From: a virus
Lineage: Duplodnaviria; Caudoviricetes
Direction: 5' to 3' (one strand)
Length of the DNA: 64,000 bases
Virus record (IMG/VR): IMGVR_UViG_3300013426_000026
Span: 39,395 to 103,394 of that record
In this document: positions 2,375 through 49,126 of the stretch, one piece after another
Layout: each line of letters opens with the position of its first letter
Numbering within the stretch: position 1 is the stretch's first letter
The notes under the pieces: generated by a model
What the model was told of the DNA's origin: nothing
Database searches by the model: none
Seen by the model: only the letters and a program-made list of their open reading frames with translations
Translations under genes and position numbers: made by a program

Positions 2375-5300
2375 ATGGCTAATAGAAATAATAGTGCTTC
2401 ATATGATGTAAAACTTGCTTTTACGGCTGATACTGCGTAGGCGAGACAATAGCTAGAAAATTTATAGAATGAGCTTACTAAATTAGCTAATTTTAAATCC
2501 ACAGATACTTTAACTCATGGATTAAATAAAGAGCTAGCAGAAGCATCTATTCAAGCTAATCAATTGAAGAATAGTTTAGAGAAAGCTACTGATATTAATA
2601 CGGGAAAATTAAATTTAACTGCTTTTTCTAACGAATTAACCAAAAATGGTAAAAGCATAGACGATTATAGAAAAGCTCTTGTTGCATTAGGTCCTTCTGG
2701 GGAAGAAGCTTTTTTACAATTAACGTAGAGTATAATTACTGCCGATGCGGCTTTAACCACCGGTAATAAGAAATTAAATGATTTTAAGAAAACTTTAGCT
2801 AATACTGTTAAATGGTAGATTTCTTCTAGCATGATGCATAATTTTATAGGTGGTATTGAAACGGCTTATAACTATGCAAAAGATTTAGATAGATCTCTAA
2901 CTGATATTAAAATAGTTACTGAAAGTAGTTCATAGTCAATGGCCGATTTTGCCTAGAAAGCTAATAAGGCGGCATAGGCTTTAAGTACAACTACTAATAA
3001 TTATGCTTAGGCCTCCTTAATTTATTATCAGTAGGGCTTAAGTGGTAAAGAAGTAGAGGATAGAACTGCGGTTACTATCAAAATGGCTAATGCCGCTGGC
3101 GAAAGTGCATCTAAAGTTTCTGATCAATTAACCGCGGTTTGGAATAACTTTTATGATGGTAGTAAGTCTCTTGAATATTATGCTGATGTAATGACGAAGC
3201 TTGGTGCCTATACGGCGTCTAGTACTGATGAAATTTCAGAAGGTATTCAAAAGTTTGCATCTGTTGCTAATACTATCGGTCTTAGTTATGAATATGCCAC
3301 TTCGGCATTGGCTACATTAACTGCTCGTACTCGTGAAAGTGCAGATACAGTAGGTAATAGCCTTAAGACTCTTTTCGCGCGTATTCAAGGTCTTAGTTTG
3401 GGTGAAACACTTGAAGATGGTACCGATTTAAACAAGTATTCTAAAGCTCTGATGAAGGCTGGCATTGATATCAAGGATTAGAATGGTGAATTAAAAGAAA
3501 TGAATACTATCCTTGATGAAATGATGGATAAGTGGGATGGACTTAGCCGAGCTGAACAAGTTGCATTAGCATAGACGGTTGGCGGTGTTCGCCAATATAC
3601 TCAACTTGTTAATCTTATGGAAAATAAAGATTACTTTAAAGAATTGGTTGGCGTTGCTGAAAATTCTACTGGTTCTTTAGAGACTCAAGCAGAAATTTAT
3701 GCTGATAGTTGGGAAGGCGCTCGTAAAAGAGTCTAGGCCGCTGCTGAGGGTATTTATGATAGCTTAATTGATGAAAATTTCTTTAAAACTGTTGATGATG
3801 TAACAGCCACTACTTTAAATGGTATTAATGCTATTATTACAGGTTTGGGCGGAATTAAAGGCGTTGTTTCAAGTTTAGGGGCTTTAGTATTTAATATTTA
3901 TCGTAAAGAAATATCTACGAGTTTAAATTCTTTCGGTAATATGATTTATAATATGACCCCCCAAGGACAAAAAGCAGTTGAAAATCGTAGGCAAGAAGCA
4001 TTGGCTTCTGAAAAGAAAATGTTTGAAAGCTTTTATAATAGTCCTGCAGAAGATAGAACGGCGGATGATGTGGCTCGTATTAATAAGTATCAAACAATTT
4101 ATGAATTTTCTCAAAAGATTTATGATGTATCAGAAAAATTAACTGATGAAGAAAAGAAGTAGGCCGCATAGCATTTAGACATTATAAATTCTTTAAGCCA
4201 AGAGGCTATTAAATATGGAGAAATTTATGAAAAAGCTAATAATGCAACTGAAGAAACTAGATTAAAATTATTTTAGACTATTCGGGCTAAAGAAAATGGT
4301 AATCTTTTTACAAATGTAGATGAAGAAAGATTTTTTACTGCATAGAATTAGGCGATAGCAGCGAGTGTTTATCGTAAATAGGCTTCACGGACTGGTGCTT
4401 TTGGATATAATACCGATAAAGACGATTTAATTTTTTATTTAGATCACTTAGAAAAATCAACATAGAATTTTTTAAGAGCGAATGATAATTTAATTGGCGG
4501 TGAGGGCTTTTAGAACTATCGATTAGCGGACAATGCTCAAGTTTTAAAAATAATTCAAAATTTAAAAGCTGAAATTAATTCTTTAGATAAAGATGGTAGC
4601 TTAAATAATGTAATAGATAAAATCAATTTATTAATTACTGGTGACAGAAAAATAGAAGATAAATTTAATGGCCAAGAAGGTAAAAAAGAATTAATTAAGG
4701 CTGGATTTATAGATAGTAATAATAAAAATCATTATTTTGCTGGCGTAAGAAATTTAGCTCGTAATCAAGAAGAAAATTATAATTAGAGTTTTACGAGCAG
4801 ATTTGAGAAGGTTGCTGGAACATTTAATTTACGCCCATAGGAGATAGAGGCTGTATATAATTCTATGACTAAATTATCATAGGCTGAGTATGACAGTGCT
4901 ATGGCCGCTGGAAATGTGTCTAGAGCCAATTAGATTATGGGAGAATGGCTTGATAAAGTTTCTCAAAAGACTACATCAACCTCCGAAGCTATGGTAGCAT
5001 TTGCAGGTGCATGTATGAATTTAGCCTCTTTTTCAAATTAGATAAAAGGATTTTTTGATACGTTAGCTAACCCTAATACTACTGCGTTAGAAAAAACAGT
5101 AAGTATTTTAACTTCTATTGGCATGTTAGTTCCATAGTTTATTAATTTATAGAAGAATTTATAGTCTATCGGAAATAGTAAAGTTATTCAAAAAATAAAA
5201 GATTATTTCGCTTCTTCTTTGGATACTTAGGAAACAGCTCGAAATACTACAGAAGAATTAAAAAATGCTGAAGCAAAAAGATAGGCCACTAGAGCTTCTA

Positions 5301-8300
5301 AAGGCAAAGCACAAGCCTTATAGCAAGAAGCAAGCGCTGAAAGTGCAGACACTGCGGCTACAGGTTCACGAGGATTACTTTCTAACATATCCGGAGCCAC
5401 TTCACTTGCGATTGGTTTAGGCTCTGTTATAGCTATTTTAACTCTTATTAATTAGTTGTTTGAGGCTCATAAAAATAAATTAATAGAAACTGCATAGACT
5501 AGTTAGGAATATTTATAGACTTTAAAATCAGAAATAGATACTAATAATGAGTTAATTGACAGCTATGAAGAAACTTTAAAGACTTACCAAAAGACCGGAG
5601 AAGGAAAAGCGGAATTACGAGAAGTAGGCAGTAAATTATGTGATAGCTTAGATATTGAAAATTCAGCTTTATTAATTCAGCAAGGACGGTATGAAGAGTT
5701 AGCGAAAAAAATTAAAGAAGCTAATTAGGCTAAATTAAATGGCTCAATATAGTCAGCCGACCAGGCTATTAATGATAATTTTTCCGCGGGAATTTTACAA
5801 GGTTCATACACAAAGTATAATTCTACTCAAGGAACTCATAGAATTTATAGTGGTAATAAAAATAAGTTTACTAAAGATTTTGAAATAGAGTTATTAGCTG
5901 ATAATCCTAATTTAATTGGATGGGACAATTATACTTCGATTAGTAATTCTAATGATTTTGTTAATTGGTATGAAAAAGCTTAGAATATACAACAAGCTAC
6001 TTTAGAAAAAGCCGGAAAACAAGGAATTAAAACAGAAGATATTTCTTATCTTAAAAAATTAAATGAATTTTTAGCTGATAATAAAGAATTTTATGAAAAT
6101 ACAAAAGCTTTATTAGATAATGAAAATTCTTTAATATTAGATAAAGCGTGGTTTGGTTCAGATTCAGAAAATGTAAATTCTTTAAAAGAGTATACAAATT
6201 TTCTTAAAGAATTTAAGAGTGAGACTTTAAGTTTAAATTCTGAAGATTCTGATGGAATTATTAATAGTTATTTATTTGGTAAAGAGGGTATTGGGAACTA
6301 TGCCCTTTAGTATTCTGCTTTGGAAGAGTGGTTAAAAAATGCTAATGTTACTTCCGCAGTTACTCCTGAAGATATAATAAATAATTTTTCTGATTAGGAT
6401 ATTGAAATATTATTAAATTTACGTACTGAGGCTACTGGAGTTATTAGCGGAAATGATTGGATTTCTTCTTTTTAGAATTTAATTAAACTATCTCAAAAAA
6501 TAGCTGATAATTCGCCCATTGAATTTAATATTTCAATTGCAAAAAAAGCAAAAGAAAAATTAAAAAAAGAAATGGACGAAGATGATTGGACTAAATATTT
6601 TAAAGATGTAGATATTCCTTGGGGACAAAAAGGTTGGGTTACATAGTCTGGTTTTTAGTCTATGACTGATAATCAAAGATAGCAATATTTATCATAGAAA
6701 TAGATTGAAGAAAATCAAACAAATTATGAATTAATTTAGAATAAAGATGCTTGGATTGCTAATTAGCAAAGTATTTATGATGAATTAATAGCTAATAATA
6801 CGGCTAAAATATAGGATTTAAATAATTCAGCACCGACTGATGAAGATATTCAAAGAGCACAAAATACAATAAATAATGATGAACAAAGATAGTCTAACCT
6901 TAAGTGGTTAGAAGAAATGACTAATACTTATAATTAGATTTTAGAAGATGCTGGATTAAAAGATTAGAATGCTATTGATAAAGCCTTAGATGCTAAATCA
7001 GATGAAGCAAATAATGCTTTAATACAAGCTTATAATCTTATGTCTTTAGCTTAGGCGACTGTAGATAGAGATAATTAGAATTTAATTAATGCATAGGATA
7101 CAATTTCATTATCTGAAACTTATAGTGAATTAGTTACCGATGCTGAAAAATATGGTGAACAATTAGCCTCTGAAAGAAATAATATTGAAGATTCTTATAA
7201 TGCTATTATTCAATCTTTTGAGAATTCTCGTAGTTAGATGCTTTCATCGATTAATCTTTAGAATTTAGATATCGGCGATACTATTACTGCTGATGCGTAT
7301 TCAACATTAGAGTCTTTTGGAATTCATGTAGAAGATTATTTTTCAGAAATGGATGATGGTACTTACAAATTAATTGCAAAAGCATAGGAATTAAATAAAA
7401 TTTTAGGAGTAGCTTCTATTGAAAATGCTTATAATGCTGCTGATAATTTTGTTAGCTCTATTTATAAATCTTAGAATCTTGAGCTTCCTGAAAATATGCA
7501 AATTCCGCGAGATACTTTTTTAACTATAACCAATAGTATAATAGATAAAGGTATTCCATCGAATTGGGATAATGAGTATAAGGAATCTTGGATCAAAGCT
7601 GCCGGTTTGAATGTTGAAGAGTATAAAAATAAATTGGATGAAGGCGTTGTTGAAGCTGCTAAACATTATCAAGAATTAATTAATAACGGCGATTATCAAA
7701 TCGATGTTACAGTTCTTAATTCTGATAATATGCTTGATTTAAACAAAAATGCTAAAGCTGCCGGAATAGATACAACGGATAAACGGTATACAGATGCTAT
7801 GGTTAGTATGGCTTCAGAAGCGGGCATAGAGTATGACGCTACAGTAACTGCTGTTATTGATGCACAATCAAAATATGATGAAGCTATAAGTAATTATGGT
7901 GAAAACTCAGAATTAGCCAAAAAAGCCACAGAAGATTTATCGAAAGCTCAAGATAATTTAGCTAAAAATATTCGTACTATTTAGTTTTATAAAGCAACAG
8001 AAGATTTAGCTAATTATATGAAAACTTTAAAAACTACTAAAGATAATACTGAAAAAATGACTACGGCAACTAAAGCCGCAGAAGCCATTAGTAAAGCTTT
8101 TGGTAAAACTGTTGATTCTTCTTTTGTTTTAGATAAGGAAAATTAGAAGTTAATTGATAAATTAATTAATGGCACTTAGAAGCAAAAAAATGAGGCAGCA
8201 TTTAAGATTGATTTAAAAATCGATAATACAGAATTTACAAAAGACGTGAAAGATGCAGTAAAAGATGCTTCGGGAGATGCTGGAGAAGAAATAAATAGAT

Positions 8301-11300
8301 CTTTTGCTACTCAATTTGAATAGGTAGATTTAAGTGAATCTATAACTAATGGTATGGAACAAGGAGTCCAAACTGGGGCCGATGCGGTAAGGGCTACAAT
8401 AAATAGTTTAAATGGATTAACTTTTAATGCAGATGGTTCTATTAATATGGATAATTCTTCGGCTGTTAGTGCCTTGCAAGGTCTTCAGACCGCTTTAGGT
8501 AATACTACTGGAGAAGCTGGACCATTAGCTGGTATATTAAGCAGTATTTTATAGACCAGTATGACTCTTGATTCTGCTCAAATTCAAACTTTAGTAGATT
8601 TTTTAACAGATTTATTTAATGCTTTATAGGGCGACGCAAGCGCCTTAGAGAGTATCGCTAGTAAAGGGGCTACTCAATTAACAAATGCTGGTATTGACAT
8701 GACTGGCATGGGCCCAGGAGAAAACGAATGGACTAATATTACTACTAAAGGACCTTCTGGTGGAGGTGGAGGCTCTTCCTCTAAAAAGTCTGCTTCTGAT
8801 ATAGGTAAAGAAATTCAAGATAAACGTATTGCAGTTAATGAAAAAAAGCGTGAGTTATTAGAAACAAAACGTGAAGGTGCTAATCCAGAAGATGCACAAA
8901 AATATATTAAAGAAGAAATTGACTTACTCGAAGAAGAACAATAGCTTCTTGAAGAATAGATTAAATCTTGGAAAACTTTATTAAAGACTAAAGTTCAAGA
9001 ATTTAATGCTAAACATCCAGAATTAGAAATTACTCTTGATGACAATGGCGAAATTGCTAATGCTTCTGAACTTTGGGGTAAAGTTTGGGCTGAATATGAA
9101 AAAAATATGCAAGAGGGCATGTCTGGCGAAGAACTCAATGAATGGTTTACTAAAATCAGTAATGATATTAATGGGCCTATGGGTATCCAAGAGAATATTG
9201 ATGAAAATGTCGCGGCCATTGCTTAGAAAGAAAAAGAGTAGGCTGAGCTTGAGCTTGAATCAATAACTAAAGCCATTGATTGGAAAGTCAAACAAATTGA
9301 TTTCTAGATTAAGCGTCTTAATTATTATCAAGAAAAGCTTCTTAAATAGGCTCATGGCAATAAACAAACTATTGAAGCAATGCTTGAAGGATTTGCTTAC
9401 CAAGAGCAAGAAATGCTTTAGTTGTTTGATAAAGGTGCTACATTGCGCAGTGGCATTGATCAATTAAATTCGGCGAAAGCACAATATCCAGATTATGCGC
9501 AAATGTTTGATGAATAGATACTTGATTATCAAAGTGATTTGATTGATGTTAATGAAGCTATTCTTGATTTGCGTAATGACATTGAAGACCTTGTGCAAAA
9601 TGTTATGGATTTGGCGCTTGATGAGATTGATAAATAGATAGAACGTCTTGATACTTATACATCAATGCTTGACCATCTTAATAATATTATTGATTTGTCT
9701 GGTCGTTCAATGCTTGATATGGGCCTGAAGACTTAGATTGGTGCTACTAAAGTCCAAACTATGATTGGCAAAATGACCACTCTCAAAGGTCAAATGGATG
9801 GTTTGGTTAAAGCGCAAAAAGAAGCCGAAGAAGCATTGGCCGATCGTAGGGCTGATGGAGATGAATCTTCTGTTAAGTTCTGGGAAAACCAAGTTGAGGT
9901 TATTAAACAAGAAGTTGAAAAGGCATCCGATGAATTCCTTGGTTCTTGGGAAGAAACTCTTGAAGCTGCGCAAGATTTATTTGAAATGCGCGTGGAGATG
10001 GCAATTAATACATTAAGTAATGCCCTTTCGCCCTTTGAGACTCTTGAAGATTTTTAGGATAAATACGAGAAAGCCAAAACTATTAATGACCAATATCTTG
10101 ATGATGCAGAACGCCTCTATGAATTAAATAAACTCAATCGCCAGCTCAATTTATAGATGAAAGATACTGATGACCTTTTGGCTCAAGAAAAACTTAAAGA
10201 GATTTAGAAAGAGATTAACGATCTTCAGGCCGATGGCGTCTAGATGAGTCAATATGACCTTGAGTATTTGCAAAAGAAATATGATTTACAACTTGCCGAA
10301 ATTGCCCTTATGGAGCAATAGAATTCAAAGACTTCAATGCGTTTAGTACGTGATGCCGCGGGCAACTGGACTTATGCCTATGATGCCGATGAAGAAAAAA
10401 TTGAGGATGCTACATAGAAATATGAAGATGCGGTTCATGATTTAGGTGAGTTAAGTAAAGATTATATTAATGATGTAAGTGAATAGTTAATCCAAAATTA
10501 GATTGATTTTAAAGAAGCCTTACAAGATCTTGATAAGAATTCGGCAGATTATTCCAATTAGCTGTTAGCTTTACAAGAATACTACGTTGAAAGACAAAGA
10601 TATTTGCTTGATGAATTAAATAAAGGTGTTGTAAATAGTGGCCAAACCTTCCATGATACTTTATATGGTCAAATGACTGATTTGTATGATTACAATGATG
10701 CTTATATGCAATTTGTTAATAATTCTAATATTACAATTAGTGAATTATAGACTAATTATAAAGATTGGCAAAAAGTTGTTGAAACTGCAATGAACGTTGC
10801 TGGTACGTCTTGGGACAATTTTGGTACAGACATGGGAGGAACTCTTGATAGTCTTGAAGAACATATCCAAAAGCTTTGTGATGAAATTGAAGAACTCGTT
10901 GATGTATTAATGGGTTATATTTCATAGTCTATTGGTATGGTTCTTGATTGGGAATAGAAATATTCCAAGAGAACTGACCAAGAGCTTGCCAAGAACGAAA
11001 GCTATATTGATGGTAATTTTAGTGGCGGTGGGGGGAGGTATACTGACGTTGATATGCGTACTGATTGGAATCGTGTTATAGCTGAAATTACAGCTACTGG
11101 TACCTCAAAAGATGCCTATGGTAATATTGTTACAGATATTAATTAGGCTTATGAAAATCGTTAGGCAAAGTAGGATAAGATGAAGGAAGGCGTAAAAGCT
11201 GAACATGAAAAGTCTGGTGAAAGCTTTACCGATGATGAGCAGGCAGCTGCAATTGCTAAATCCAATAAAGACGTAGCTGACGAAATGCATAAGAAATATG

Positions 11301-11692
11301 GTTCTGGCGCCGCAACAGGTGCTTATACTGGTGATTGGGGTTTTGGTCAAGGATTCGGTCCTGATAATGGCAAGTTAATTAAAGTCCATCCAAAGGAATT
11401 AATTCTTAATAAAAAGGATACTTCTAATATATTGCGCGCGGTTGATATTGTACGTAATATGAATACTTGGGTGGATGATTAGATTAAGCGCATGAACCAA
11501 CAAAGTCAATCTGCGATTAGTGATTTAATGACTGATATTATGCCTCCTGTTTATAATGATTAGCCCATTCAATAGGACGTTAAGATAGAAGCTAATTTTC
11601 CGAATGTCACTGATCATTATGAAATTGAAGAAGCATTGTCTAATCTTAGTAATGATGCTGCATAGTACATCAGCGCGAATAGAAATAGATGA
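2375..11692 (+). CDS. tail tape measure protein (~3105 aa, TAG=Gln)
   Basis: AAGGAG RBS, ATG 2375. Track fragments 3083, 3845, 7496, 8354, 8699, 9761 and 11180 share one frame and end at TAG; TGA at 11690-11692. N-terminal TP901-type TMP core (TRESADTVGNSLKTLFARI) and C-terminal ATGAYTG...VHPKELILNKKDT motif. Confidence 0.9.
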
Positions 11693-25447: not shown

Positions 25448-25876
25448 ATGAATTTATATCAAGGATTTGGAAATAATACAGGTTATTATTAGCCTCCACG
25501 GCAACAAACTACTCAACCACTAATGCAATAGACATAGCCTTTTGTAGGTTTAAAGGGACGTCCGGTTTCTTCATTAGAGGAAGCTCGTGCGGCCGCAATT
25601 GATTTTGATGGTTCTGTATTTTTCTTCCCTGATTTGGCTAATAAAAGGATTTATACTAAATAGATAAATTTAGATGGAACGGCGTCTATGAATATGTATG
25701 AGTATAAAGAGGTTCCTACCGAAGCTTTTAATTCATCTAATTTTGTTACTCGTTAGGAATTTGATGAAACATTAAATGATATTAAAGGCGCATTAAATAT
25801 GATTGTTTCATAGCAATAGCAAGTCCAGTAGCAACCAATTCAAGAAGAAAAACCTAAACAACAAATTAATTTTTAA
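25448..25876 (+). CDS. cassette gene 1, Gln-rich hypothetical protein (142 aa, TAG=Gln)
   Basis: MNLYQGFGNNTGYYQPPRQQ...LKGRPVSSLEEARAAAIDFDGSVFFFPDLANKRIYTKQINLDG...FVTRQEFDE...; RBS AAGGA; TAA 25874-25876. Confidence 0.8.
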
Positions 25877-30437: not shown

Positions 30438-30962
30438 TTAGCCTTCCTTTACAAAAACAACGCCCGCGTCATAGCCAAATAAATAATAACAATTACTTGT
30501 TTTGTCCGAGTTTGTAATCCAAATTTCAATAGCTCCATTATTGTTATTAGAAATATCTTTAATATCTCCAAATTCTTGTAAATCATGCAAAATATCTAAA
30601 ACCGCGTCTGAAAATAAATTATAAGCCGTTTCATTTATGCTACTGGTTTCAAACATGGTAATATAGCTTAATTCTTTACAATATAACATTAAATATTTAT
30701 TTTTAGTCGTTTTGAAAAAATCTTCAATAATATTAAGCTTATCAAAAATTTGTTCTTCACTAAGAGGCTTCATTTGTGTCATTACTTGCTAATTTAATTC
30801 ATAATTTGTCATTTTAAGATTAATATCTTTAGTAATTATTGACCATTCTGTACCGGTCCAAGTATAATTTTGTTCATCAGAAATATTATAAAATACATCA
30901 CCAACTTGTGGAGCTTTACTAATGGCTTCATCTAAATTTTTTATTTTTCCTCGATATCTCAT
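30438..30962 (-). CDS. hypothetical protein (174 aa, TAG=Gln)
   Basis: ATG 30962 overlaps the nrdG TGA; extends track ORF 30438-30782 through one TAG. Confidence 0.7.
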
Positions 30963-31453
30963 TTATTCATCTCCTTCAAGTAAATAATATGTTGATTTAA
31001 ACTTCCCCTCATAGATAAAGTAATATCTCTTTGCTCTTGTATATAAGGGCCATCAACTAATACATCAATAGTATTTAAAATTTCTTGTAATTTGCCGTTT
31101 TCTTTTTTATTGATTAAATCTTCATAGTAATAGCCAGTCCATAAATAAATTTTTGTATTGGGTAATTTTTCTTTTACAAATCTAATAACTAATAAAGTTA
31201 ATAATTGATTTTGTTCACACAAAGGTTCTCCGCCAAGTATACAAAAATTTCTATGAACATTATTTGCCGTTAATGCCTAATAAATTTCATTAAATACATC
31301 ATTAGTGAATTCTTTTCCACCATTAAAATCCCACGTTTCAGGGTTATGGCATCCTTCGCAGTGATTAGGTTAAGGACAGCCCTAGGTCCAAAATGATACA
31401 TTTACCCCGGGGCCGTTTGCAACGTCATTGTATTTCAAATCAGCGTATTTCAT
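30959..31453 (-). CDS. nrdG: anaerobic RNR activase (radical SAM) with a 6-nt TAA-containing insertion in the CxxxCxxC motif
   Basis: DVANGPGVNVSFWTQGCP[*P]NHCEGCHNPETWDF, LGGEP, IYLWTGY, DVLVDGPY, RGSLNQ; TAA at 31370-31372. Confidence 0.85.
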
Positions 31454-32347
31454 TTAATCATCTCCTTTAAATAAATATTTAGAAGTTTCAGGAATTAAAT
31501 CAGATAAAATTATACAGTCTCGTTTTTCATAAGGTATTCTAATTAATAAAATATTATTTTCTAAACAATAGTTATCTTTTATTTTATCTCATTCTTGCAA
31601 ATCTTTAAAATCTTCTATGGTACTACTCCAAGTTGTAAATGGAGTAGTGTGCTATTTTCCATCAAACTCTATAAAGTAAGGATTTTTATTATTGTTTGGT
31701 ATATAAAAATCAAAACGTAATTTTCTTTGGAGATTTTCGGGATGAAATTCTTGTATAAATTCAATATTGTTGTTTCTTAAAATATTGGCGATATTTTGTT
31801 CACCTATGGAATAATTTATACAGCCACAACTTTGTATTTTCTAACTTTTTAAATGCTTTCCTAATATACTTTTTTGTTTTCCACAATCACATTGACAAAT
31901 CCATCTTGGTCCATTTTCATTGTTTGACCAATCTCTATCCAACACAAGTAAATGATTAAATTTCTATCCAATTAGATTATTTCCTTTTGTGTACTAATGA
32001 TGTTTTACAAAATTTCCACATGAAGTACTTGTTCCCTATGTTAGATGTGATTTATAAACTGATTTTACAATTCCACATGAACATTGGCATAAAACACAAC
32101 CTGGTTTCTAATTTTGTTCATCAATTACTATCCATTCTCCAAATTTTTTATTTAAAATACTTTTCTTCTATAAACATCCACAGCTTTTAACTCTTCCACG
32201 TCTTAATGCGGTGCCTCTAATACTTTTTATATTCCCGCATGAGCAACTACAAATCCAATGTTTATCAGGCGCTATGTTGTTTTTGTCCAAATATAATACT
32301 GTTAATAAACCATATTTATTTCCAGTTTCATCAATAAATTTACCCAT
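31454..32347 (-). pseudogene. free-standing homing-type endonuclease (three CxCxCG...SCG repeats plus a PD-(D/E)XK-like domain) with an in-frame TGA
   Basis: WICSCSCG...KSCGC repeats; SIGEQNI...RFDFYI...FIEFDGKQH...LIRIPY; TGA at 31589-31591 in QE*DKIKDNYC; sits between nrdD and nrdG. Confidence 0.65.
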
Positions 32348-32351
32348 AGTA

Positions 32352-35300
32352 TTATAAATGGCATACCCTATCTCTTATTTCATTAGTTCGGCCGTGATTC
32401 CAAAATTGAGAACCGATATCTTTGACACCCTCGGTTTCCCGATATTTATTAGGGGAATAGACTATACAATATTTATTATTATTATTATTATTTGTGGCAA
32501 AATTGTCCTTTGTTATTTCTAGCTTTATTTCCATTAGTGAATCCATACAATAGATTATCTTTATGAGACATCCATTCTAAATTATTTAAATTATTATTTT
32601 TAGGATTATTATCCTTATGATTTACATCAGATAGATGCTCTGGATTTGAGATAAACATTTCAGCTATAATTCTATGAATATAAACATCTTCTCGTTCGTT
32701 AGTGCTGTCGCATCTCATGTAAATTCGAGCATATCCGGTTTTTGTATATCTAGGAGTTAATTCTTTTGGGGATATCCATTTCGATTTGTCAAAACGATTT
32801 CGACATCCTTTGGGAATTACAGAGTATATTTTTCCATCTTTACTAATTTTATATCCTGTAAAATCTGGAATATCATACAGTTTTTCCATAATTATTATCT
32901 CCTTTCTTTATTTTTAATAATAATAATAATAATAAATTCCCTATTATAGTCGTTGAACGTTCCTCCGGCCTGGAGGCTTCGCTGCGTTTGATTGCCCAAT
33001 CTCAAATGATTTTACTATACCGTTTCCGTTGCTAAACGCCATTTATATATTCCTATATAAATTTAGTTATTTGAGCTTAAGGGGTTCCCCGCAATTTAAG
33101 GGATTTAGTGTGGACAATATCGTTTATCCACAGGTTCTGCGTGCAACATTAAGTGTTTCATGGTCTCGATTACCACAATTAGGGCAATACCATTTGAGAT
33201 TATCATCTATTAAAATTTCTCCATCGTAGCCACATTTTTGGCAATAATCAGATTTAGTATTTAATTCAGCATACATGATATGATTATAAATAAATTGCAT
33301 TACAGTTTCTACGGCCTCAATATTATTCTGAAGATTAGGAGTCTCAATATAACTAATTGCACCACCAGGACTCAATGCTTGGAATTCAGCTTCAAGAGCC
33401 AATTTATTAAAAGCATCAATTTCTTCAAATACTGGGACATGGTAACTATTTGTAATGTAATCTCTATCTTTGCCATCAAGTTTTATAAAAATATCTTTCC
33501 CGAAACGTTTTTTAAGGCAAGTGGCAAATTTATATGTTGTACTTTCAATTGGAGAACCATAGACGCTATAAGAAATATCCTCTTCGGCACGCCATTGTGA
33601 GCAAGCATCATTTAAGTGTTGCATAACTTTAAGGCCAAACTCTTTCCCACCTTTAGTATGACTTTCTCCAGTCATATATTTAACACATTCATAAAGCGCT
33701 GCATAACCAAGAGATAAAGTAGAATAATTATTATGCAATAATTTGTGAATACTTTCTCCTTGATTTAATCTGGCCAAAGCGCCGTAACGCCACAATATAG
33801 GTGAAACATCGGCAGTTGCGTGGCTTAATCTTTCATGCCTTGCTTGTAAAGCTCGATGGCATAATTCAAGACGTTCATCAAATAATTGCCAGAATTTTTC
33901 AAAATCTTTATTGGAACTAAAAGCGATATCAGCAAGATTAATGGTGACCACTCCCTAGTTGAAGCGGCCATAATATTTGTGACTAATAGGGTCGGGCGTG
34001 AGGAAACTTCTACACATATTAATCCAATATTGCTATTGGGACTGACTATATCTTCTATCTTAAAATTAAGATAGTCTTCCGCTTCGGTTTTCAGTTGCTT
34101 CGTTTCCTAAAACAACGGTGGTGCTTATCTCCACCCCTACTCCCATACATTCATCAGGGATAGTCGATACACTTTAATTCAAAATTTCAATTTTATATTG
34201 GTTTTTAATAATAAAATATGGCTCTTCCTTATGTTTATAGGCTTTTCCGCTAAAAGTTTTTTCTGATAGTTGAAAATATCGTTCGGCTTCAGCGTAGCTA
34301 TTAAATTTGTATATAGTATTATCTAATAAATTTGTTACCTATATTTTTCTTGCTCGAGCATTATTTTTATTCACACTATATTCTGGATAGTTCTCATTAG
34401 CATAAGCAATTTGCCACTATTTACGATATAGACATTTTGTTTGTCCTAAGCAACGTCGTGTAATAAAATTATGATTCGTTTCATTAAAAAAAGCCTGCAT
34501 CTCAGATATAGAATCAAAATAGTATTCTTCATCTGTATTGATATTTCTACATTTAACGGCCGTTGCCTATGGATTTTTACCCGCTTTTTTACTGCTTGAA
34601 ATTTTTTGTTTAATTTCTTTTAATTCGTTAGAAGTTTTGTATTTATAAGTATTACCGCCACTTTTAAGGCAAGAATCTGTCTCATTATAACCCATTTCTA
34701 TTGAATTATAAAAATGAATCCAATAAACTTCTTTTTGATTGAGTTCCTCTTGTGTTTCAGCGCGGTCTATTTCTATAACAGTAAAATTATTTGGGCCATA
34801 TTTACGAATTGCTCTTGCTAAATGGGTATCAATCCTATTATTAATTGTATCATAAATATGTCGCTAAAATCTTTCTTCTATTGTTTTAGAAGTTTGACCA
34901 ATATAAATTTTTTGATTTATCTAATTTGTAATTTTATATACTAGCATTTTTCTCACCTTTATATTAATGTGAGAAAGGGTCTAGTTAATTTAATTAAAAT
35001 AGTCCAAGAAATTTTAAATTCTTAGCACGGTCTCATCCTAACAGTAGGACCTAACCGTTGGCCTATTAAATTATTAATAGACACCCGCGAGCGCGGTTCA
35101 AAAGATTTTACATGAGCTGTAGTTTACGCTTACCCATGCATGGATAAACATCACCTTTTAATTCCTTCATTATTTTTTCAGAAATATAATCAGGTACCAA
35201 GCGTTTTGCCGTACATTTAGCGGCCAGCTCTGTTAAATACCAATATTTACCATTTGGAGTAATATTATCTTCTTCAAGAACATAAAGCAATTTGGGGAAA

Positions 35301-36301
35301 GCTGGAGTAATATATACACCTTTTTCATTTTTAAATCCAAGAATACGTTGATTTAAAAATTCTTCAATCAACATAGCTAATTCTTCTTTATATTCTTCAG
35401 TTTCATTCAAATACATATATACCGAAAGAAAAGGGGCTTGTCCATTTGTATTAGTCATAGAATTAGTTTGGTAATTAAAGGTTTGAACAGCATCAACAAT
35501 TTCTTTGTGTAAATCTTCTTCTACGAATTCTCTGGCTTGCTCTTTACTTAATCCTCGATATTGATATTTCTTAATATATCTTTCTTTACTACTTCTAACA
35601 AAAGGAGCCAAATGACTTAATGAAATAGTCGCTCCACCATAAGAAGAAGAAGTTACTGCAGCAATAATTTGTGTAGCAATTGTTGTTGCTGTAAGTAAGC
35701 GATGAGGCTTTTCAATCATAACACCATTCACTACCGTACCATTCTGCAACATATCATCAAGATTAATTAATTCACAATTATGTAAAGCATTTTGCGCGAA
35801 ATAATCTGCATCATGAAAATGTATAATTCCTTCATCATGGGCTTTTACGATATCAGCATCCAAAAGAAAACGTCGGGTAATATCTGTACTAACAATGCCG
35901 GCCATATAATCTCTTTGTACTGTGGTACGTTTAGCATTTTTATTAGAATTTTCATTATTCCAATAATCGCTATTTCCTTCTAATAATTCTCTGATAGATT
36001 TATCAGTGGTATTAGATTGACGGACCATTTCTTTTTTATATCTATATCTAATATAAGCCCGCGCAACATCACGTCGTTCAGAACGCATAAGATAATCTTC
36101 AATTAAATCTTGAATATCTTCTACTTCTATACTACCATCTGGACATTTTAACATCCATTTTTCAATATCATTAGCAATATCTATAGCGGTATCACTTTCA
36201 TAAAGCTAACCATCAACTTCTATAAACGCTTTATCGATTGCATTTATAATTTTGTTTTTATCAAATAAAACGACTGTGCCGTCTCGTTTAATTATATACA
36301 T
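32352..36301 (-). CDS. nrdD: anaerobic (class III) ribonucleotide reductase, 3 exons
   Basis: Exons 36301-35132, 34014-33126 and 32419-32352. ATP cone (IKRDG), PCMG|CRSFL, GRFNQGVVT (Q=TAG at 33955-57), and RRTCG-Y|IG glycyl-radical motif. Confidence 0.95.
32420..33125 (-). mobile_element. group I intron 2 of nrdD (706 nt) with HNH endonuclease
   Basis: Splits the TAT codon of RTCGY; P1 GUGGAU/GUCCAC; CAACGACTA and TATAGTC P7 strands; terminal G. Confidence 0.9.
32488..32889 (-). CDS. intron-encoded NUMOD4/HNH homing endonuclease (133 aa)
   Basis: YKISKDGKIYS...YIHRIIAEMFI...VNHKDNNPKNNNLNNLEW. Confidence 0.85.
   Translation of the reverse strand: MEKLYDIPDFTGYKISKDGKIYSVIPKGCRNRFDKSKWISPKELTPRYTKTGYARIYMRCDSTNEREDVYIHRIIAEMFISNPEHLSDVNHKDNNPKNNNLNNLEWMSHKDNLLYGFTNGNKARNNKGQFCHK
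34015..35131 (-). mobile_element. group I intron 1 of nrdD (1117 nt) with GIY-YIG endonuclease
   Basis: Lies between MG and CRS; P1 CAUGGGU/GCUCAUG; GTATCGACTA and AAGATATAGTC; terminal G at 34015. Confidence 0.9.
34174..34947 (-). CDS. intron-encoded GIY-YIG homing endonuclease (257 aa, TAG=Gln)
   Basis: MLVYKITNQINQKIYIGQTSKTIEERFQRH...AIRKYGPNNF...GYNET; NUMOD-like C-terminal repeats. Confidence 0.85.
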
Positions 36302-36397: not shown

Positions 36398-36967
36398 TTA
36401 GTCCCAAAACCAAGGATGGTCCATAATCTTATCACAACATTTTAATTCATCTTGTTGAATTTCATTAAATAATATTTCCATATTATCAAATTTTATATCT
36501 TTAAAATCTTCTTCATCTGCAAAATAACGTCTAATAATTTCTTTAACATCTGGATATTCTTCTCTACTCAATTGGCGTAAAAAACGTTGTTTATCAGAAG
36601 CATGAATATAATATATTTGTAAATCAATGTCTGAAAAATTAAGTAAAGTTTTAATACCCGAAGGATTGAAAATTCCTATGTTAATTTTATTTTTATCTAA
36701 ACATTTAATGCCAGTTCCATACCACCAGTTATTAAATTGAATATATTCAAGCATTTGATTATTATTTACCATTTGCTCGAATTCTTTTTCAGAAATAAAA
36801 TGATATTCTTTCCCCTCTATTTCTCCTTCACGCATTGGACGAGTTGTATAAGAGATAATATAATTTATAGATGAATCAGATATTCTTATTACATCTTTTA
36901 AAATGGTATCTTTCCCTGACCCAGCTTTGCCTATCAATGCTATTAATTGATATTTTTTATTCTTCAT
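36398..36967 (-). CDS. gmk: guanylate kinase
   Basis: GKAGSGKDT, YTTRPMREGEIEGKEYHF, WYGT. Confidence 0.9.
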   Translation of the reverse strand: MKNKKYQLIALIGKAGSGKDTILKDVIRISDSSINYIISYTTRPMREGEIEGKEYHFISEKEFEQMVNNNQMLEYIQFNNWWYGTGIKCLDKNKINIGIFNPSGIKTLLNFSDIDLQIYYIHASDKQRFLRQLSREEYPDVKEIIRRYFADEEDFKDIKFDNMEILFNEIQQDELKCCDKIMDHPWFWD

Positions 36968-39900
36968 CTTCGGCCACTCCTTGATATCGTTCACTTCTTA
37001 ATAGTAAATCTCCATTTGGTTTAATTTCATCAATATGATACAATTGATGTCCAATTGTAGAAGCATATTTTTTAGGAATGAAATCATCGCCTGAACGAAT
37101 ACCTTGAACTACAATCATATTACCACGATTAAACCAAGATTTTTCCATAATTTTTTTAGTCCCATCTGGTTGTTTTTGCGATATTTGCTTATCAAATAAA
37201 CTAAAATATTCTTTTCTAAATTTTATATTAACAACTCCAGTTGGAGTTAATATTGTGACCATACTTTTATTTTTATTCTTGGCGATACAAGTTCCGCAAA
37301 TTTTAGATAAATAATAAATATTAATAGTTTTACCTGCCTTTGTAAAACTACGTTCTATTCTAGGCTCTTCCGGTAATTGATTAAAATCAACATACCCATA
37401 TTTTTTACTATTAATATTAGCTAATTCATGTTCGTGATAATAGAAACATAATACTTCCATTTCCCAAGCTGAGTAATTATTTTTAGAACAATATTTATTC
37501 CAATCATCTTTAAAAATTAAAGTATTTAATTTATTCAAAATTTCTTGCTTATTTTCAGCTATTTGCGCGCGATATACATCCATCCATTTATCATAGACTT
37601 TATTTTTCCATGCCTCAGTTGACATTAAATAATTAACTCTATCATTATAAATTAAATCATCTTTATCAATTTTTTGCAAGAAATTAATTGCGCGTTCATC
37701 TAATTTATAATCCGCTTTAGTATATTTACATACTGTTTTTAAGTACCGAGTAAATTCATAAATATGTAAAGCTTGTTCTCTTTCTTTTGTATCTGCTGGA
37801 AGTAAATTAAATTTCATTAATGTTGCAAGATTTTGAAGATTAAGATTGGATTTTTTATCACAAGTTTCCCAAATATACCAAGCCATACAAAGTTTTCTAT
37901 CCATCATATTATCAAAAGCTCCACCCTTAATAAGTGAAATCATAGCTTGCTTATTAGGTTTTACTTTCAATAAAAATTCCTTTAAATTCTTATAAGGACG
38001 ATGTTCAATAATTGATTTAACTACATCATCACCGACATTAAGTATACCTTTTAATCCAAAAAGGATTTGATTATTTTCCGTATCAGGAATAAAACTAAAG
38101 TCTGATTTATTGATATCAGCTAAACTAATTTTTATACCGGCTTGACGAATATCTCCAATGGCCTTGGCAATTTTTCCATAATCGGTAGAATTAGTTTTTC
38201 TTATTTTTGTTTTTTTATCAGGTAAGTCTTTAAAAGTAACTCCATTAATTAAATCATCATTTTCTGGTTCATAGATATCTACAATTTCTTCTTCACTATT
38301 GTCTTCCAGAGAGCCACTATTGACAATCAAGCAAGCGCAATTCCAATAAATAGGATTATAATGAATAACAAAATAAATCATTTGAATAGCAACAAATGAA
38401 TAAGGAAGTGAATGATTAAGAGAGAAGGCATAACCTAGCTGGGGAGCAATAGCTGTTTCCCAAAAATATTCTGCGTCATTTTTATTATTGAAACGACTAA
38501 ATACTTGTTCTTTTAATTGAGGAATTTTAGCCATTTGTTTTTTTGCTACTACTTTACGAGCGGAATTAGCTTCTCCTAATGTAAAATGAGCTATATCCAT
38601 AAGAATTTCCATCATTTGTTCTTGTAAAGGACAACAACCATAATATTTATCACAGTGTTTATGAAATTTATCAATAAGTTCTTGAGGTAAATGATGTTGT
38701 TTCATTTCTTGATCAAAGGCTTGAATACCTTGGTGTTGAATTCGATAAAATCTATCTTGCTGTGATTCTTTACCTTTTTCTGACGTAAGACGCATCATAG
38801 CATTAGCTGCTGTCATTTCCATAGGGTCTTGCGGTTTTAGTTTTTTGGCGATGGCTAACCCTACACCAGTAGAAAACTGGAAACAGTCTAATACATCTCC
38901 GGTGGCTAAATGATCCCAAATTTTTTGGTCTGTAGTATCTATTACTTCTGGATGAATATATTGATTATAAAAATCTCTTAAAGATAAGTCAGGAATTTCT
39001 TTAGCTTTTAATAATAATTCATAACAAGTAATAATTTTATCAGAAGCTTCAGTTACAAGAAAATCATATTTTGTATCGCCCGCACTTTCTGCCTGATGGA
39101 GGTCCCAACATGTAATCAAGCTACCACTGGGCGTGCGCATAAAACTAGCAGTTTCATATGGATCATCATCATAAAGAATGACTCCAGAAGCATGCGATGA
39201 ACGTTTATTAACAATGCCACCGATATAAATAATTATATCAAGTAATCCGGGATATTCATTTACTTTATTTAAAAAAGTCTTAACAGGTTTTCTATCTTTA
39301 GCTTCATTGCCATAAATAACATCATTAATTTCCCATAAAAATCCACGCTCTTGCGGGATAAGAGAAGACATATATTGCGCTTCATCTACGTCAATACCAT
39401 TTGGATATTCATCTGACCTATAACCGCGACAAGCAGTAAGAATAGCAGACTTAGTAGTTTCAGTGCCAAAGGTAGCAACCTGAATTAATCCTAATTCTCC
39501 ACGTTCTTTGCGAATAGCTTCAAAAATTGCAGGACGTTTTGAAGGAGCTAAGTCAATATCAATGTCCGTTTTTATTGGACTATATTTTTTACGATAATTT
39601 ACTGAGAGCATTTTAATTCAATTATCGCTAGAACATCTTTCAGATGGTGCTTATCTCCATCTTACATAATAGTCTCTACACATTTAATCTTCCGATTTTT
39701 AGCACGGTATTATCAATCTATCCATTCTCAGGACATAGACTCTCTTAGTCAGTTGATTCGTTCTTAAAATTAATTAAGACTTATTTCGCTGATACCGTTA
39801 GCCTGCATTAAGCAGACACCCATTAAGCAATGGTTAATGTTCTTTTTTTACAACTGCCCAACATCAATATTAGACTAGGCAGTTCGGCTCTCTCTTTATT

Positions 39901-41271
39901 CAGAAAGCGCCAATACGGAAGGCCCCAGTGAATAGGGTCAAGCTAAGTAATACCTAATAGATAATTAGACAAAAAGCCTGTAGCTGAGCCGCGCCCAGGA
40001 CCTACAATAGAGCCGCAATTCCAGAACAAATCAATATAATGTTTAAAAGTATTAAAATAAGCAAAAAGGCAATCATCCAGTTTTTTACCAATATCTTTAA
40101 TGATATCAGCTTCAATTTCAAGACGATTTAAATATATATCAAGCTTGTTTTCAGAAATACTTTTATTATACATCTTTTCTAATAAAGACATATAACATTC
40201 ATTAACCCAATAACGCTCTTGAGGGTTATTACTCATTAATAAACTACATAAAATTGGATATTTTTCTTCACGCTCACCATACCATCCACTTAATGATTGA
40301 GGATAATTAGTTACTTCTACTTTTGGAATAATTTGCTTTCTTTCGAGAGAAAAATCTTGTATTTTATTTTGAATTTCAAAAGTATTATTTAAAATTTCTT
40401 TAGCTATTTCTTCTGGTTGTTCTTCTATATCTAAATATATAAAACAAGGAGTAATTAATTCAAAAACTTCATCATAAGTCATTAAATGAGCAAATTCATA
40501 AAATTTATCAACTTCTCGTTCTCCATCTTTTGAATTTAGGTAAGCCTTATGAATTGGCCTATCTTCTTTAGTTAAATAATGACTGTCTGTCGCTACTTCC
40601 ACTTTAATATTATAATTACGACCAATTTTATAAATCATATGATTTACAAGCTTTTGATCGGACATAGTAGAAGGGGCAATCTCAAGATAAAAATCATCGG
40701 CAAATAAATCTTTACAAAAATTAAGGAAATTATCTAATTGTTTTAATGTTTGATATAATTCATATTTATTATCTTCTTCTTGGCATTTAATAATTTTTAG
40801 TAGACAAGAACCTAACTCACCACCAATACAAGCCGTAGTAGCAATTAAATGTCCTTTGTATCTTTCTGCTATTGGTTTTAATTCATTTTTTAAAAGTGGA
40901 ACTCGTTCCATTTTTCTATCAACATATAAATTTTGCCAAGCTATTGAGCTTAATTCTTTTAATGCTCGATAACCTATAGCATCTTTAGCAATTAAAATAA
41001 AATGATAATATTTTTGCCCTGTGCTTCTATCATCAGTTAAATAAACTTCATTGCCTAAAGCTATTTTAAAATTGGGATATTTTTCTTTAATTTTTTTTGC
41101 ATATTGATTTGCTATCATATGAGCTGAAAGACTTTCGTGGTCTGTAATAGCAATACCAGAAAGCCCTAACTCTATTGCTTTATCTATTAAAGCTTCTGGT
41201 TTATTTATACAATCAAGTAATCGGAGGTTCGAATACATAGTATGATTGTGACAATTAAAATAGGTATTCAA
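36957..41271 (-). CDS. dnaE: DNA polymerase III alpha subunit (DnaE-type), 2 exons
   Basis: Exons 41271-39877 and 39566-36957. PHP domain (HNHTMYS, AITDH), GPGRGSA, RAELP|DIDID catalytic motif, SSHASGV, YAFSLNHS; one TAG (GITQLDP). Confidence 0.95.
39567..39876 (-). mobile_element. ORF-less group I intron in dnaE (310 nt)
   Basis: Lies between P and DIDID; P1 CUGCCU/GGGCAG; GAGACTA and AATATAGTC; terminal G. Confidence 0.88.
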
Positions 41272-41826: not shown

Positions 41827-43020
41827 TCACTTCCTTATTATAACCAATTTTTTTGTAGCGCGAGTGATACCAGTATATAGCCATCTACGATGCTCATTAC
41901 TTTCAAAAGGAAATTTTTCTTCCTTTAATAAAACTTTATCCCATTCACTACCCTAGGCCTTATGTACCGTAATTGCATAAGCATATGTAAAATTATATGG
42001 CGCTTCTAAACCTTCACCTTCTCTAGCAAAGTTATTTATTGTAAATAATTGTTTTTTATCAAAAGCCTGCTCACCAGTTATGATAGCATCGTAATCTATT
42101 GGAATACTTTCAAAACGTCCATTCTCTATTTCCATACCTGTGAACATAAATTTAACTTCTTTATCATATATTTGAGGAGGGTATAAATAAGGCATTATTT
42201 GATAATTTGTAATTATTCCAATGGTACCATTGGTTAAAGCCCATTGTTGATTAGTAGATAAAAAATCCCAATGATTGGTTAATCCTATAATTTTATCTCC
42301 AACTTCTGGTTCAATTCCTCGACCTTGGCGCGATCGAACATTATTATTAATTTGTATTCTTGTTTTATTAGTTGCGCATAATATTTGGTCCGCCCAATCG
42401 TACATAGATGGTTCTAATTCATAATTTCTAAAAATCATAACATGTTCATTAGCACAAGGGAAAGTACCAATTGGTTTACCTTCCCTAATCCACATAGATA
42501 AGCGAATTATTTCACTATCTTGTGCTTGACGCATAATCTCATCAAGAAAAATATGAGGATTATCTAATATATGATTATTTTGATCTTCATAAATTGGTGG
42601 AAGCTAAAATGGGTCACCACAGGCTATTACATATTTATGATGTGAAAGAAGTAAATCCCACATTTTTTTAGGCAGCATAGAAATTTCATCAACAACAATT
42701 ACTTTATATTCTATAGGTCGTCTTGGTTTTAAATAAAATGTTCCATTTGGACGAGGTTTGGCTTCATATAATAATTTATGAGCCGTAGTAGCATTAGGAC
42801 ATCCTTTTGATTGTAAAACTGTAGCTGCTTTGCCAGTGTAAGCTACATATGCCACATCTGTTTTTGGATTAACTCCAAGAGCACTAATAATAAATTTTAC
42901 TAATGTTGATTTACCTGTTCCAACTTAAGCATAGCCAGCAATACAAGTATAAGGTTCATGGCTCTTGTATCTGGCTACGGCAATTTTCAATCCAGCATTC
43001 TATTTATCAGTTAATGTCAA
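41827..43020 (-). CDS. RecD/Dda-like SF1B helicase with a 6-nt TAA-containing insertion in Walker A
   Basis: TTG start with GGAGG. IAGYA[*V]GTGKST, AYTGKAA, VVDEISM, GDPFQLPP and HKAQGSEW (both Q=TAG), WLYTGITRA; TAA at 42925-42927. Confidence 0.85.
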
Positions 43021-47284: not shown

Positions 47285-49126
47285 TTAAAAAGCGCTATCT
47301 TCAGCAATTCTAATTTTTACATTTTCCATATCAATTAATTCATAACTCCAATTAGTGCAAAACATTGGAATTATACGACAACACCCCAAATCGGCTTTAC
47401 ACCATAAATAAATACCTTTATATTTACCTCGGCGGTTTTTATATACTGATAATTTAATTGTAGGTTTATCAAAAGTATTACTTTCTAATACCTTTTGCAA
47501 AGCTTCATAATCATTGTCTCTGGCTTGAAGCAAAATCATACCTACATCAACTTTCCTTTATACCTTATATTTCTATAAGGAGTAGACTATATCTTTACCA
47601 TGCTCTATGTGAGTTTAGGTAGACCGTACTTCGCTTTCGCTACTCCGCGCAACCGGATAGTCGTTGAACCTTCCTCTATTTGAGGCTCGGCTGCGAGGTT
47701 GCCCAATCTACTTAATTTTTATAACATTCACATTTAAGCTTATTTCATCTTTATGCTGTAGTTTAAGTAGCTCTAAGGGTTTTCCCGCAATTCTCGGTCT
47801 GATAATCACTTGGAATTTCTTCCAAGGACGACATAATCTTATGATAAAAATACATAAGACCAAATCTGCTATACTCTTCGCACCTCTCAAAAGATTTTGA
47901 TCTGGTGTTTCGCTATACTAATAGTCCGCATTTAATTGCGTTGCTGACATAATAAATATGCCATATTGATTACATATATCTTTTAAACGAGTAGAAAGCA
48001 TAAAAAGAATATTATCTTCTCTTAGTTTTACACCGCCACTACGTTTACTAATTTCTTCTAGAATTTTCATGCTTGTATGTATATAATCATGAACCACATA
48101 CTTTATACCATGATCACGAATATTTTTTTTAATAATATTTTCAACGTCTTGAAGAGAAAAATCAGGTAGCTCAACTATATATAAATTAGCTTTTCTTAAA
48201 ATTTGACCGGCTTCTCTAACTCGGGTTAATTCATCATTTTGATATTGTCCATTTAATATATGGTCTTCATTTACATTTGAAAGAAAAGCTAGCATCATAG
48301 TCTGAATTTCATCTTTAGTTTGCTCTGTAGAAATAAAAAGAACCGGTTCACAGCCTCCACCGGATTTAATCCAACCAATACCATCTTGATAATACTTTTC
48401 ACAAGACAAATAACAAGCATCAGCTATCATTGTTCTCGACTTGCCTACTCCAGAAGCGGCCGAACGTAAATAAAATTTTCTTAATCTAGCACCACGTGTA
48501 ACTGTATTAATCAATGGCCCAAACAAGGGTGCGCCAATTTCTGGATGTTCCAAAAGGTCATCAATCAAGTCATCAATATCATTACCAGCTTGATAAGCAT
48601 CGCCTTCAACATTAGAAATATATTGATATTTAATTTCTTCAATTTTATCATCAATTCTTTGTGCAATACGCTCAAGGGAGGCATTATCTAACCATTCTTC
48701 TTGTAATTGGTGCTTTTTAGTGTCTAAAATATTATCAGGATCGAAAATATCTTCTACATTGATACCAAATTTATCATACGCGCGCAATAAAGACATCTTC
48801 TTCAAACGACTATAATAATAATCAAAGGTAGATAAATTACTATGAGCACTTGCTTCTGTAATCCATTTATCACCTTTCTGAGAGACATAAATAGCTTGAT
48901 ACTTTGGTCTGGTACTTAAAAAATCATTTATTGCATCAAGAGTAATACTTTCCGCGCCGAGTTCATGTAATTTATATATCGAACCATAAACAACTTTATG
49001 AAATTCATTATCAAAATCGTCTTCGGTAATAGTATATTTATCAGTATAATCTAAAAGCTTTGGATTATTGAAAACACATCCAATAGTCTAAATAATAGCG
49101 GTGGGGTCTACATAGCGAGATGCCAT
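47285..49126 (-). CDS. dnaB: replicative DnaB-like helicase, 2 exons
   Basis: Exons 49126-47864 and 47554-47285. SAASGVGKSR, ISTEQ, HDYIH, SATQLN, LRGAKSIAD|KVDVGMIL, YKNRRG. Confidence 0.9.
47555..47863 (-). mobile_element. ORF-less group I intron in dnaB (309 nt)
   Basis: Exon ends GAU and the intron ends in G; CAACGACTA and AAGATATAGTC; removal restores SIADKVD. Confidence 0.88.

Follow-up and report, generated by a model that had tools for sequence, protein, structure and literature searches.

The stretch analysed here (the window) comprises 64,000 nt of a Caudoviricetes phage, positions 39,395 to 103,394 of the IMG/VR record IMGVR_UViG_3300013426_000026, and it carries on its minus strand a Dda/RecD-like helicase gene (43020..41827) whose Walker A motif is interrupted by six extra bases, TAAGTT. 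This coding gap is likely the edge of a homing cassette, left as an immunity scar, which would be expressed through a short stop-hop of peptidyl-tRNA-Ala from GCU to GUU (+6). The comparative evidence is strong that gaps of this kind are functional, that they would be skipped exactly and that they travel with a cassette encoding an HNH endonuclease; the hop itself, its efficiency and the target of the nuclease are what we infer. Among the mechanisms proposed in the initial annotation of the sequence, bypass with a GCU take-off and a near-cognate GUU landing emerged as the best supported, given the stop-led gaps of 5-8 nt, their GCN-like ends and the purifying selection on their flanks.

Helicase gap and its variants in related phages

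The helicase gene starts with TTG at 43020, 8 nt after AGGAGG, and ends with TGA (41829-41827). Its first segment (42928..43020) consists of codons 1-31, the last three of which form the context GGC TAT GCT (42936-42928): GGC at 42936-42934, TAT at 42933-42931 and the take-off Ala codon GCT at 42930-42928. The gap that follows (42922..42927) is made up of an in-frame stop TAA at codon 32 (42927-42925) and the near-cognate landing triplet GTT (42924-42922), and the second segment (41827..42921) resumes with GGA (42921-42919), continues into GTGKS and runs to the TGA stop with two in-frame TAG codons read as Gln. The sequence GGC TAT GCT TAA GTT GGA ACA GGT AAA TCA was found on the minus strand as initially annotated, and removal of TAA GTT restores GYAGTGKS, the same P-loop as in 51 uninterrupted relatives. 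The downstream helicase motifs are also intact, as had been claimed, because the protein obtained by reading through the stop has matches to Pfam AAA_30 (E 6e-19) and UvrD_C_2 (E 2e-18); with TAG read as Gln and the gap skipped, Walker A, Walker B (VVDE), GDxxQLPP and motif VI (T.HKAQGSE) are all present. Solved structures matching the helicase are PDB 9kwf_B and RecD2 3e1s. The alignment to 9kwf_B (GYA--GTGKT against GYAxVGTGKS in the window) has a two-residue hole, so TAA GTT lengthens the coding sequence of the P-loop by two codons.

A protein-seeded search of IMG/VR returned 26 helicase relatives, with 24 loci spanning the site, and in 10 of these 24 an interruption lies directly after GYA. 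Pattern scans of the same database yielded 35 true helicases with a 5-nt gap, 14 with a 6-nt gap and 17 matches to the 7-nt pattern, one of which (L110) is really an 8-nt gap. After de-duplication there were 82 distinct gapped alleles, retained where at least 100 codons were open downstream or the downstream part started with GxGK[ST], and the gap follows the same Ala codon in every one. Its length is 5 nt in 39 alleles, 6 nt in 14, 7 nt in 15 and 8 nt in 14, and the first gap codon, directly after GCN, is TAA or TGA in all 82. No gap of 3, 4 or 9 nt appeared in a scan admitting 3-9 nt in the GGC context. Since most of these lengths are not multiples of three, simple read-through is no general answer, and preservation of the frame, initially taken as a property of the inserted element, did not hold up, most relatives having gaps of 5, 7 or 8 nt.

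In every gapped allele checked, the downstream open reading frame (ORF) is open solely in the exact-skip frame, and it reaches at least 280 codons in each of 56 tallied gapped alleles (290-400 in a separate tally). The ratio of nonsynonymous to synonymous substitution rates (dN/dS) between gapped genes lies at 0.01-0.13 for the 30 codons before the gap and at 0.05-0.2 for the part after it, and such low values on both sides of the gap indicate that both pieces are translated in those frames. A tree built from 107 distinct helicases requires at least 16 changes between gapped and ungapped, the length classes interleave and ungapped genes are nested among gapped ones; gapped and ungapped products should therefore be equivalent. 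The view that the interruption is not random decay is thus borne out by the stop-led alleles, their exact-skip frames and the purifying selection on both flanks.

The triplet directly before the resume codon varies with gap length. It is ACY in all 5-nt gaps, the A being the final base of the stop; GCW (5), ACY (5) or GTW (4) in the 6-nt gaps; GCN (9), GTA (4) or ACN (2) in the 7-nt gaps; and GCN (11), GTN (2) or TCC (1) in the 8-nt gaps, which makes GCN the landing triplet in 20 of 29 gaps of 7-8 nt. A true Ala codon is commoner in this position as gap length leaves more freedom, nearly all departures from GCN are its two transition neighbours, and at least one of the first two landing bases matches the take-off codon in every allele. 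With the anticodon of tRNA-Ala these departures would form pairs of the wobble type (A-C or G-U). Gaps of 3 and 4 nt, both absent, cannot end in a GCN-like triplet, for which 5 nt is the shortest possible length.

Two pairs of near-identical phages differ at the junction itself. Between L085 and L086, GCT..TAACT has become GCC..TAACC, the third bases of take-off and landing changing together, and between L098 and L112, TAAAGCT has become TAAAACT, the landing triplet changing from GCT to ACT.

Synonymous codon choice upstream of the stop also differs between gapped and ungapped alleles. GGC occupies codon -3 in 54 of 56 gapped alleles as against 9 of 51 ungapped ones (Fisher 2e-18), the Ala codon is GCY in 55 of 56 against 19 of 51 (Fisher 6e-13) and the Tyr codon is TAC in 45 of 56 against 19 of 51 (Fisher 1e-5). 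Among phylogenetically independent pairs, 8 have GGC on the gapped side and 0 on the ungapped side (median p 0.008), and the corresponding numbers for GCY are 7.4 and 0.1. Synonymous sites neighbouring GGC-TAY-GCY vary freely, and GGC makes up 24% of the Gly codons of the window genome. GGC-UAY-GCY is probably a take-off aid. The spacing of GGC-TAY-GCY-stop resembles, by analogy, that of the prfB frameshift site, where a G-rich stretch is followed by 3 nt of spacer, then by the shift codon and the stop. No known RNA family in Rfam was matched at the helicase gap.

HNH cassette and the nrdG site

The gene order of the helicase locus is conserved, with RecJ-like and lysozyme-like genes upstream and DNA polymerase III alpha downstream. 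Clustering of the neighbouring ORFs revealed one family confined to gapped loci, an HNH endonuclease of 175-190 aa (phrog_2255, E 6e-23) whose gene reaches to a few bases from where the helicase gene starts; no other neighbour family found at five or more loci was confined in this way. When presence was scored as a tblastn match at most 900 nt upstream of the helicase, the HNH gene was found at 21 of 69 gapped loci and at 0 of 46 ungapped ones.

The loci of two phages, L088 and L093, share a 739-nt tract that is 100% identical and extends from -726 to +12 relative to the first gap base. It takes in the HNH gene and helicase codons 1-31, continues through the gap, here TGACC, and stops 8 nt beyond it. 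Elsewhere their flanks are 40-85% identical and the C-terminal parts of their helicases 50%. The alignment marks the tract as a cassette that was transferred recently and has the coding gap as its 3' edge. Two other comparisons agree with this view: over 27 upstream codons synonymous differences amount to 0.59 between gapped pairs versus 0.74 between ungapped ones, with equal values downstream, and between-clade identity is higher for the nuclease (0.63-0.73) than for the helicase C-terminal part (0.42-0.57). A comparison of L020 with L019 and L022 for a local recombination patch gave a profile without informative signal. An insert tied to a homing endonuclease and skipped during translation had initially been offered as an alternative to bypass; the distribution of the HNH gene and the 739-nt tract support it, and it complements bypass.

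The HNH gene is distributed unevenly over the gap classes (6/29 loci with 5 nt, 1/12 with 6 nt, 7/14 with 7 nt and 7/14 with 8 nt). The nuclease gene is thus found with half of the gaps of 7 and 8 nt, whose landing is mostly a true GCN codon, as against about 17% of those of 5 and 6 nt. The pattern suggests that a cassette arrives with a longer, matched gap and that the gap is shortened once the nuclease has gone.

A second gap of the same design interrupts nrdG on the minus strand of the window. Its first segment (31373..31453; Pfam Fer4_12, E 5e-39) begins with ATG and closes with GGC TGT and the take-off codon for Pro, CCT (31375-31373). The gap TAACCT (31367..31372) consists of the stop TAA and a landing CCT identical to the take-off codon, and the second segment (30959..31366) continues from the resume codon AAT to the stop. 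Skipping the gap in GGC TGT CCT TAA CCT AAT CAC TGC restores CxxxCxxC, and the NrdG of the closest relative reads QGCPNHCAGC with no gap. Nucleotide similarity to the nearest genome (G001) starts exactly at the landing codon, at 31369, and resumes only at 36029. Directly upstream of nrdG lies a free-standing HNH/homing endonuclease gene (31589..32347, minus strand) matching phrog_374 (HNH, E 1e-39), phrog_9084 (homing endonuclease) and phrog_7140, which is presumed to be the driver of the nrdG cassette. The nrdG gap pattern with its N-H-C continuation had no other match in IMG/VR.

The 12-mer contexts of the helicase and nrdG sites are identical at 10 of 12 positions, as the initial annotation had stated, and a scan of the whole window for GGCTRTSCTTAA matched at these two sites only, with 0.02 matches expected by chance. 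The GGC context that was thought to be shared by the two sites stood across the helicase family; for nrdG it comes from a single case. The nucleases on the nrdG side and the helicase side showed no detectable kinship (BLASTP E 3.2), so the two sites would represent two independent elements with the same trick, and the earlier suggestion of one mobile element with a GGCTRTSCT target, of which both gaps would be the footprint, was not upheld.

A second small nuclease gene (Pfam HNH_3 and NUMOD4; 32488-32889, minus strand) is located two genes upstream of nrdG, in the 4.7 kb (31370-36028) over which the window and its closest relative have no similar nucleotide sequence.

A junction scan for further hop sites in the window genome and its two closest relatives returned the helicase site in all three genomes and the nrdG site in the window only. 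A scan needing both GGC and a landing match gave the helicase and nrdG sites plus alternative-frame noise, while an unfiltered hop scan and small-indel mining of whole-genome blastn alignments were too noisy for use. One site from the filtered scan, GGC NNN NAT TGAT TTT at about 25600 of the window (plus strand), has open flanks and is kept in the window genome, G001 and G002; it is off-frame to a 142-aa ORF (25448-25876) and is probably alternative-frame noise in a Gln-rich gene.

Proposed mechanism and alternative explanations

We propose that a cassette invaded the 5' end of the helicase gene and that TAAGTT is its leftover 3' edge. In relatives the intact cassette would comprise the HNH gene, helicase codons 1-31 and a gap of 5-8 nt inside the P-loop DNA. 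The nuclease would cut uninterrupted alleles at a conserved P-loop site, as is suggested by the precedent of phage T4 and by the fact that the gap lies where the DNA of the gene is most conserved. The break would be repaired by copying in the cassette, whose gap would render its carriers immune in the manner of mobA and gene 60 of T4. In the window phage the nuclease gene appears to have been lost from the helicase locus since, the gap being left behind. During translation, peptidyl-tRNA-Ala would occupy GCU in the P site while the A site held UAA, a slowly decoded stop. The tRNA would then detach from its codon and, once the mRNA had moved on by 6 nt, pair again with GUU, the middle position being a G-U pair. 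Decoding would resume at GGA and give the normal GYAGTGKS loop.

A number of points weigh against a homing scar expressed by a stop-hop. The hop is read from sequence comparison, and the window gap from an assembled sequence. The window landing GTT is like the take-off GCT at two of three positions, and all 5-nt-gap landings have a mismatch at the first position. Synthetic stop-hops in Escherichia coli reportedly occur at about 1% or less. A search of 23 diverse gapped genes with RNAalifold found no conserved hairpin or Shine-Dalgarno-like signal, the sole pairing being a trivial 3-bp GGC/GCY without covariation, and the GGC context could be inherited cassette sequence that is kept for the nuclease rather than as a signal. 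No HNH gene or relic lies beside the window helicase, so a cassette origin at this locus rests on the relatives. Finally, the in-frame 6-nt gap of the window means that read-through would also yield a full-length protein, and the resulting loop A-x-V-G-T-G-K-S formally fits [AG]xxxxGK[ST].

Read-through of this kind belongs to a wider alternative in which each gap class is recoded in its own way and no hop occurs: read-through for 6 nt, a +1 frameshift for 7 nt and a -1 or +2 frameshift for 5 and 8 nt, giving products with two or three extra P-loop residues (GYA-x-[A/T/V]-GTGKS). A stop in the A site is known to stimulate +1 frameshifting, as in prfB, and in the 5-, 6- and 7-nt classes the extra residues are x plus Ala, Thr or Val, so that A-x-x-G-x-G-K-S formally fits Walker A. 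However, this explanation needs three mechanisms at one site that swap freely along a tree with so many gap-state changes and interleaved lengths, it offers no slippery re-pairing (GCU to CUU or UGC), and in the 8-nt class it gives L-K-A-G-T-G-K-S with a non-canonical first position. Exact gap loss in close kin, which gives GYAGTGKS, would imply repeated indels of 2-3 residues in the catalytic loop, although no solved homologue has such an insertion, and in nrdG read-through would change CxxxCxxC to Cx5CxxC. We therefore regard class-specific recoding as distinctly unlikely. That the helicase and nrdG have simply been knocked out, the gap being a tolerated nuclease scar with no full-length protein made, is very improbable. 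The stop at codon 32 is a true stop in this genome, and the record, being about 56% complete, leaves room for a second helicase; but the gapped gene is the sole AAA_30 helicase in the 103-kb record, 82 of 82 gapped alleles keep the skip-frame downstream ORF with strong purifying selection on both sides, and the stop at the start and GCN-like triplet at the end of the gap are always kept, unlike in a dead gene.

Least probable of the explanations considered is that the 5-8 nt are removed from the RNA, by a micro-intron or editing, or that a split protein arises by termination and reinitiation. Exact excision would account for all length classes and the genome contains several group I introns (e.g. 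at 47563-47857), but no splicing system known to us takes out so short a stretch as 5-8 nt, the surroundings of the gap have no conserved structure, and the need for a stop in front and a GCN-like triplet at the end implicates the ribosome and tRNA-Ala rather than an RNA-processing enzyme. For a split protein, the resume point (GGA or GGT) offers no start codon, and a P-loop divided between two chains (GYA / GTGKS) is implausible. A somewhat better, though still small, chance is given to the idea that the gap is kept mainly as a regulator and that its origin as debris of nuclease immunity is secondary. It would throttle synthesis of the helicase and NrdG, or couple this synthesis to the activity of release factors during an infection with recoded TAG. 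The gap outlives the nuclease (the HNH gene is missing from 48 of 69 gapped loci), the conserved GGC-TAY-GCY speaks for ongoing selection on the site, and both window gaps lie in early replication or nucleotide-metabolism genes. On the other hand, close relatives that share the gene order often have an uninterrupted allele, so the gene can do without such regulation, and the cassette evidence already accounts for origin and spread. This idea moreover concerns the benefit of the gap, and the hop would still be needed.

Beyond the two sites, it is conceivable, although we would sooner bet against it, that natural and efficient short stop-hopping is a general strategy by which homing cassettes plant immunity gaps of 5-8 nt in the catalytic motifs of essential phage genes, with a minimal and hitherto unrecognised take-off signal of GGC, a 3-nt spacer, GCY or CCU, and a stop. 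In that case the 5-, 6-, 7- and 8-nt variants would form a natural mutational series for re-pairing of the P-site tRNA.

Genome context and comparison with known bypass systems

The window is a phage fragment with a guanine-plus-cytosine content of 30.5%, and the viral record that holds it measures 103,394 bp, its completeness being estimated by CheckV at about 56%. TAG is read as Gln, the helicase having TAG at the conserved Q of LTDKQ, GDPFQLPP and HKAQGSEW, and TAA is the main true stop. Reassignment of TAA was ruled out, since TAA terminates most long ORFs once TAG is read as Gln. A suppressor tRNA was likewise ruled out: the 103-kb record has no tRNA genes and hence no phage-borne suppressor in the sequenced part. 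The use of TAG as Gln is very uneven between positions 1-28300 and 28300-64000 of the window, with 95 TAG codons in a 3127-aa ORF (2309-11692) as against 0-7 in replication genes.

A group I intron (Rfam RF00028, 66 bits) at 47563-47857 (minus strand) overlaps the 5' part of a 503-aa ORF (47615-49126). DNA polymerase III alpha is spread over two ORFs on the minus strand (36957-39611 and 39823-41271) with about 211 nt between them, one containing PHP and the start of the NTPase region and the other the end of the NTPase region, the finger and HHH; the split is probably another intron or insert, and no Rfam match was found between the two ORFs.

As a trace of the host, the 5-nt gap pattern was searched in GTDB genomes, which gave 16 random matches and three true ones. 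The three gapped helicases (L200, L206 and L210) lie on contigs of metagenome-assembled genomes labelled Clostridia, Clostridium sp. and 'Mollicutes', one contig being 175 kb long. These are likely phage contigs binned with hosts, and they give a weak hint of a Bacillota host. No close cultured relatives were found among the INPHARED phages, where identity is at most 40% for the helicase and at most 47% for the HNH protein.

The natural bypass systems known so far are a handful, namely T4 gene 60 and its homologues, the Magnusiomyces byps and the candidate Hau3 terminase, and no published description of the helicase or nrdG gap sites was found in the literature searched. If the proposed explanation is right, about 80 independent natural variants at one codon would be added, with gaps of 5-8 nt and landings from cognate to near-cognate. 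The rules of take-off and landing would be directly testable. The gene 60 idea, a selfish nuclease immunising its own copy of an essential gene via ribosome hopping, would also be generalised, here with two unrelated nucleases and two genes in one genome. Gene callers will mark the gapped helicase and nrdG genes as broken.

The closest parallel is T4 gene 39/mobA/gene 60, in which a 50-nt stretch is reportedly skipped by programmed translational bypass (Huang 1988; Bonocora 2011). Gene 60 is part of the MobA element (bioRxiv 10.1101/2022.08.31.505936). As in T4, an HNH homing-endonuclease gene lies directly upstream of the interrupted gene, the mobile tract takes in the nuclease gene and the 5' part of the target ORF, with its end at the gap or shortly behind it, and the nuclease is often lost while the gap stays; the stop directly after the take-off codon is also common to both, and the landing triplet, identical or nearly identical to the take-off codon, may be a further parallel. 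The differences are that the gap here is 5-8 nt instead of 50 nt, that the target gene is not split in two, that tRNA-Ala (GCY) takes the place of tRNA-Gly (GGA) at take-off, and that the target is a helicase P-loop or an NrdG iron-sulfur motif rather than a topoisomerase. Furthermore, no take-off or 5' stem-loop was detected in the present family, the landing is often matched at just two of three positions, and kinship of the nucleases to MobA is not demonstrated beyond the HNH fold.

Stop-hops were documented in synthetic constructs in E. coli (Weiss, Dunn, Atkins and Gesteland 1987, reviewed in PMC5009743), and according to this 2016 recoding review they had no known natural in-frame counterpart. 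The nrdG site, CCU UAA CCU, has exactly the design of the synthetic constructs (Weiss 1987; PMC5009743). Unlike these engineered sequences, the present sites are natural, conserved across deeply diverged genes and placed in essential catalytic motifs. The terminase of Streptomyces phage Hau3 contains gaps of 10 nt and 7 nt after a rare UUA (PMC10732093). These too are short natural gaps in a phage gene that were argued from conservation of the junctions, for Hau3 with partial experimental support; there, however, take-off is from a hungry sense codon and not at a stop, the proposed role is regulatory, there is no homing-endonuclease cassette and just three genes are known (PMC10732093). The mitochondrial byps of Magnusiomyces capitatus (Lang 2014; Nosek 2015, cited in PMC5009743) differ in being 27-55 nt long, in having an unassigned codon in the A site and in lacking an associated nuclease, but they resemble the gaps described here in that many short mobile inserts are bypassed with two-out-of-three matching between take-off and landing (PMC5009743).

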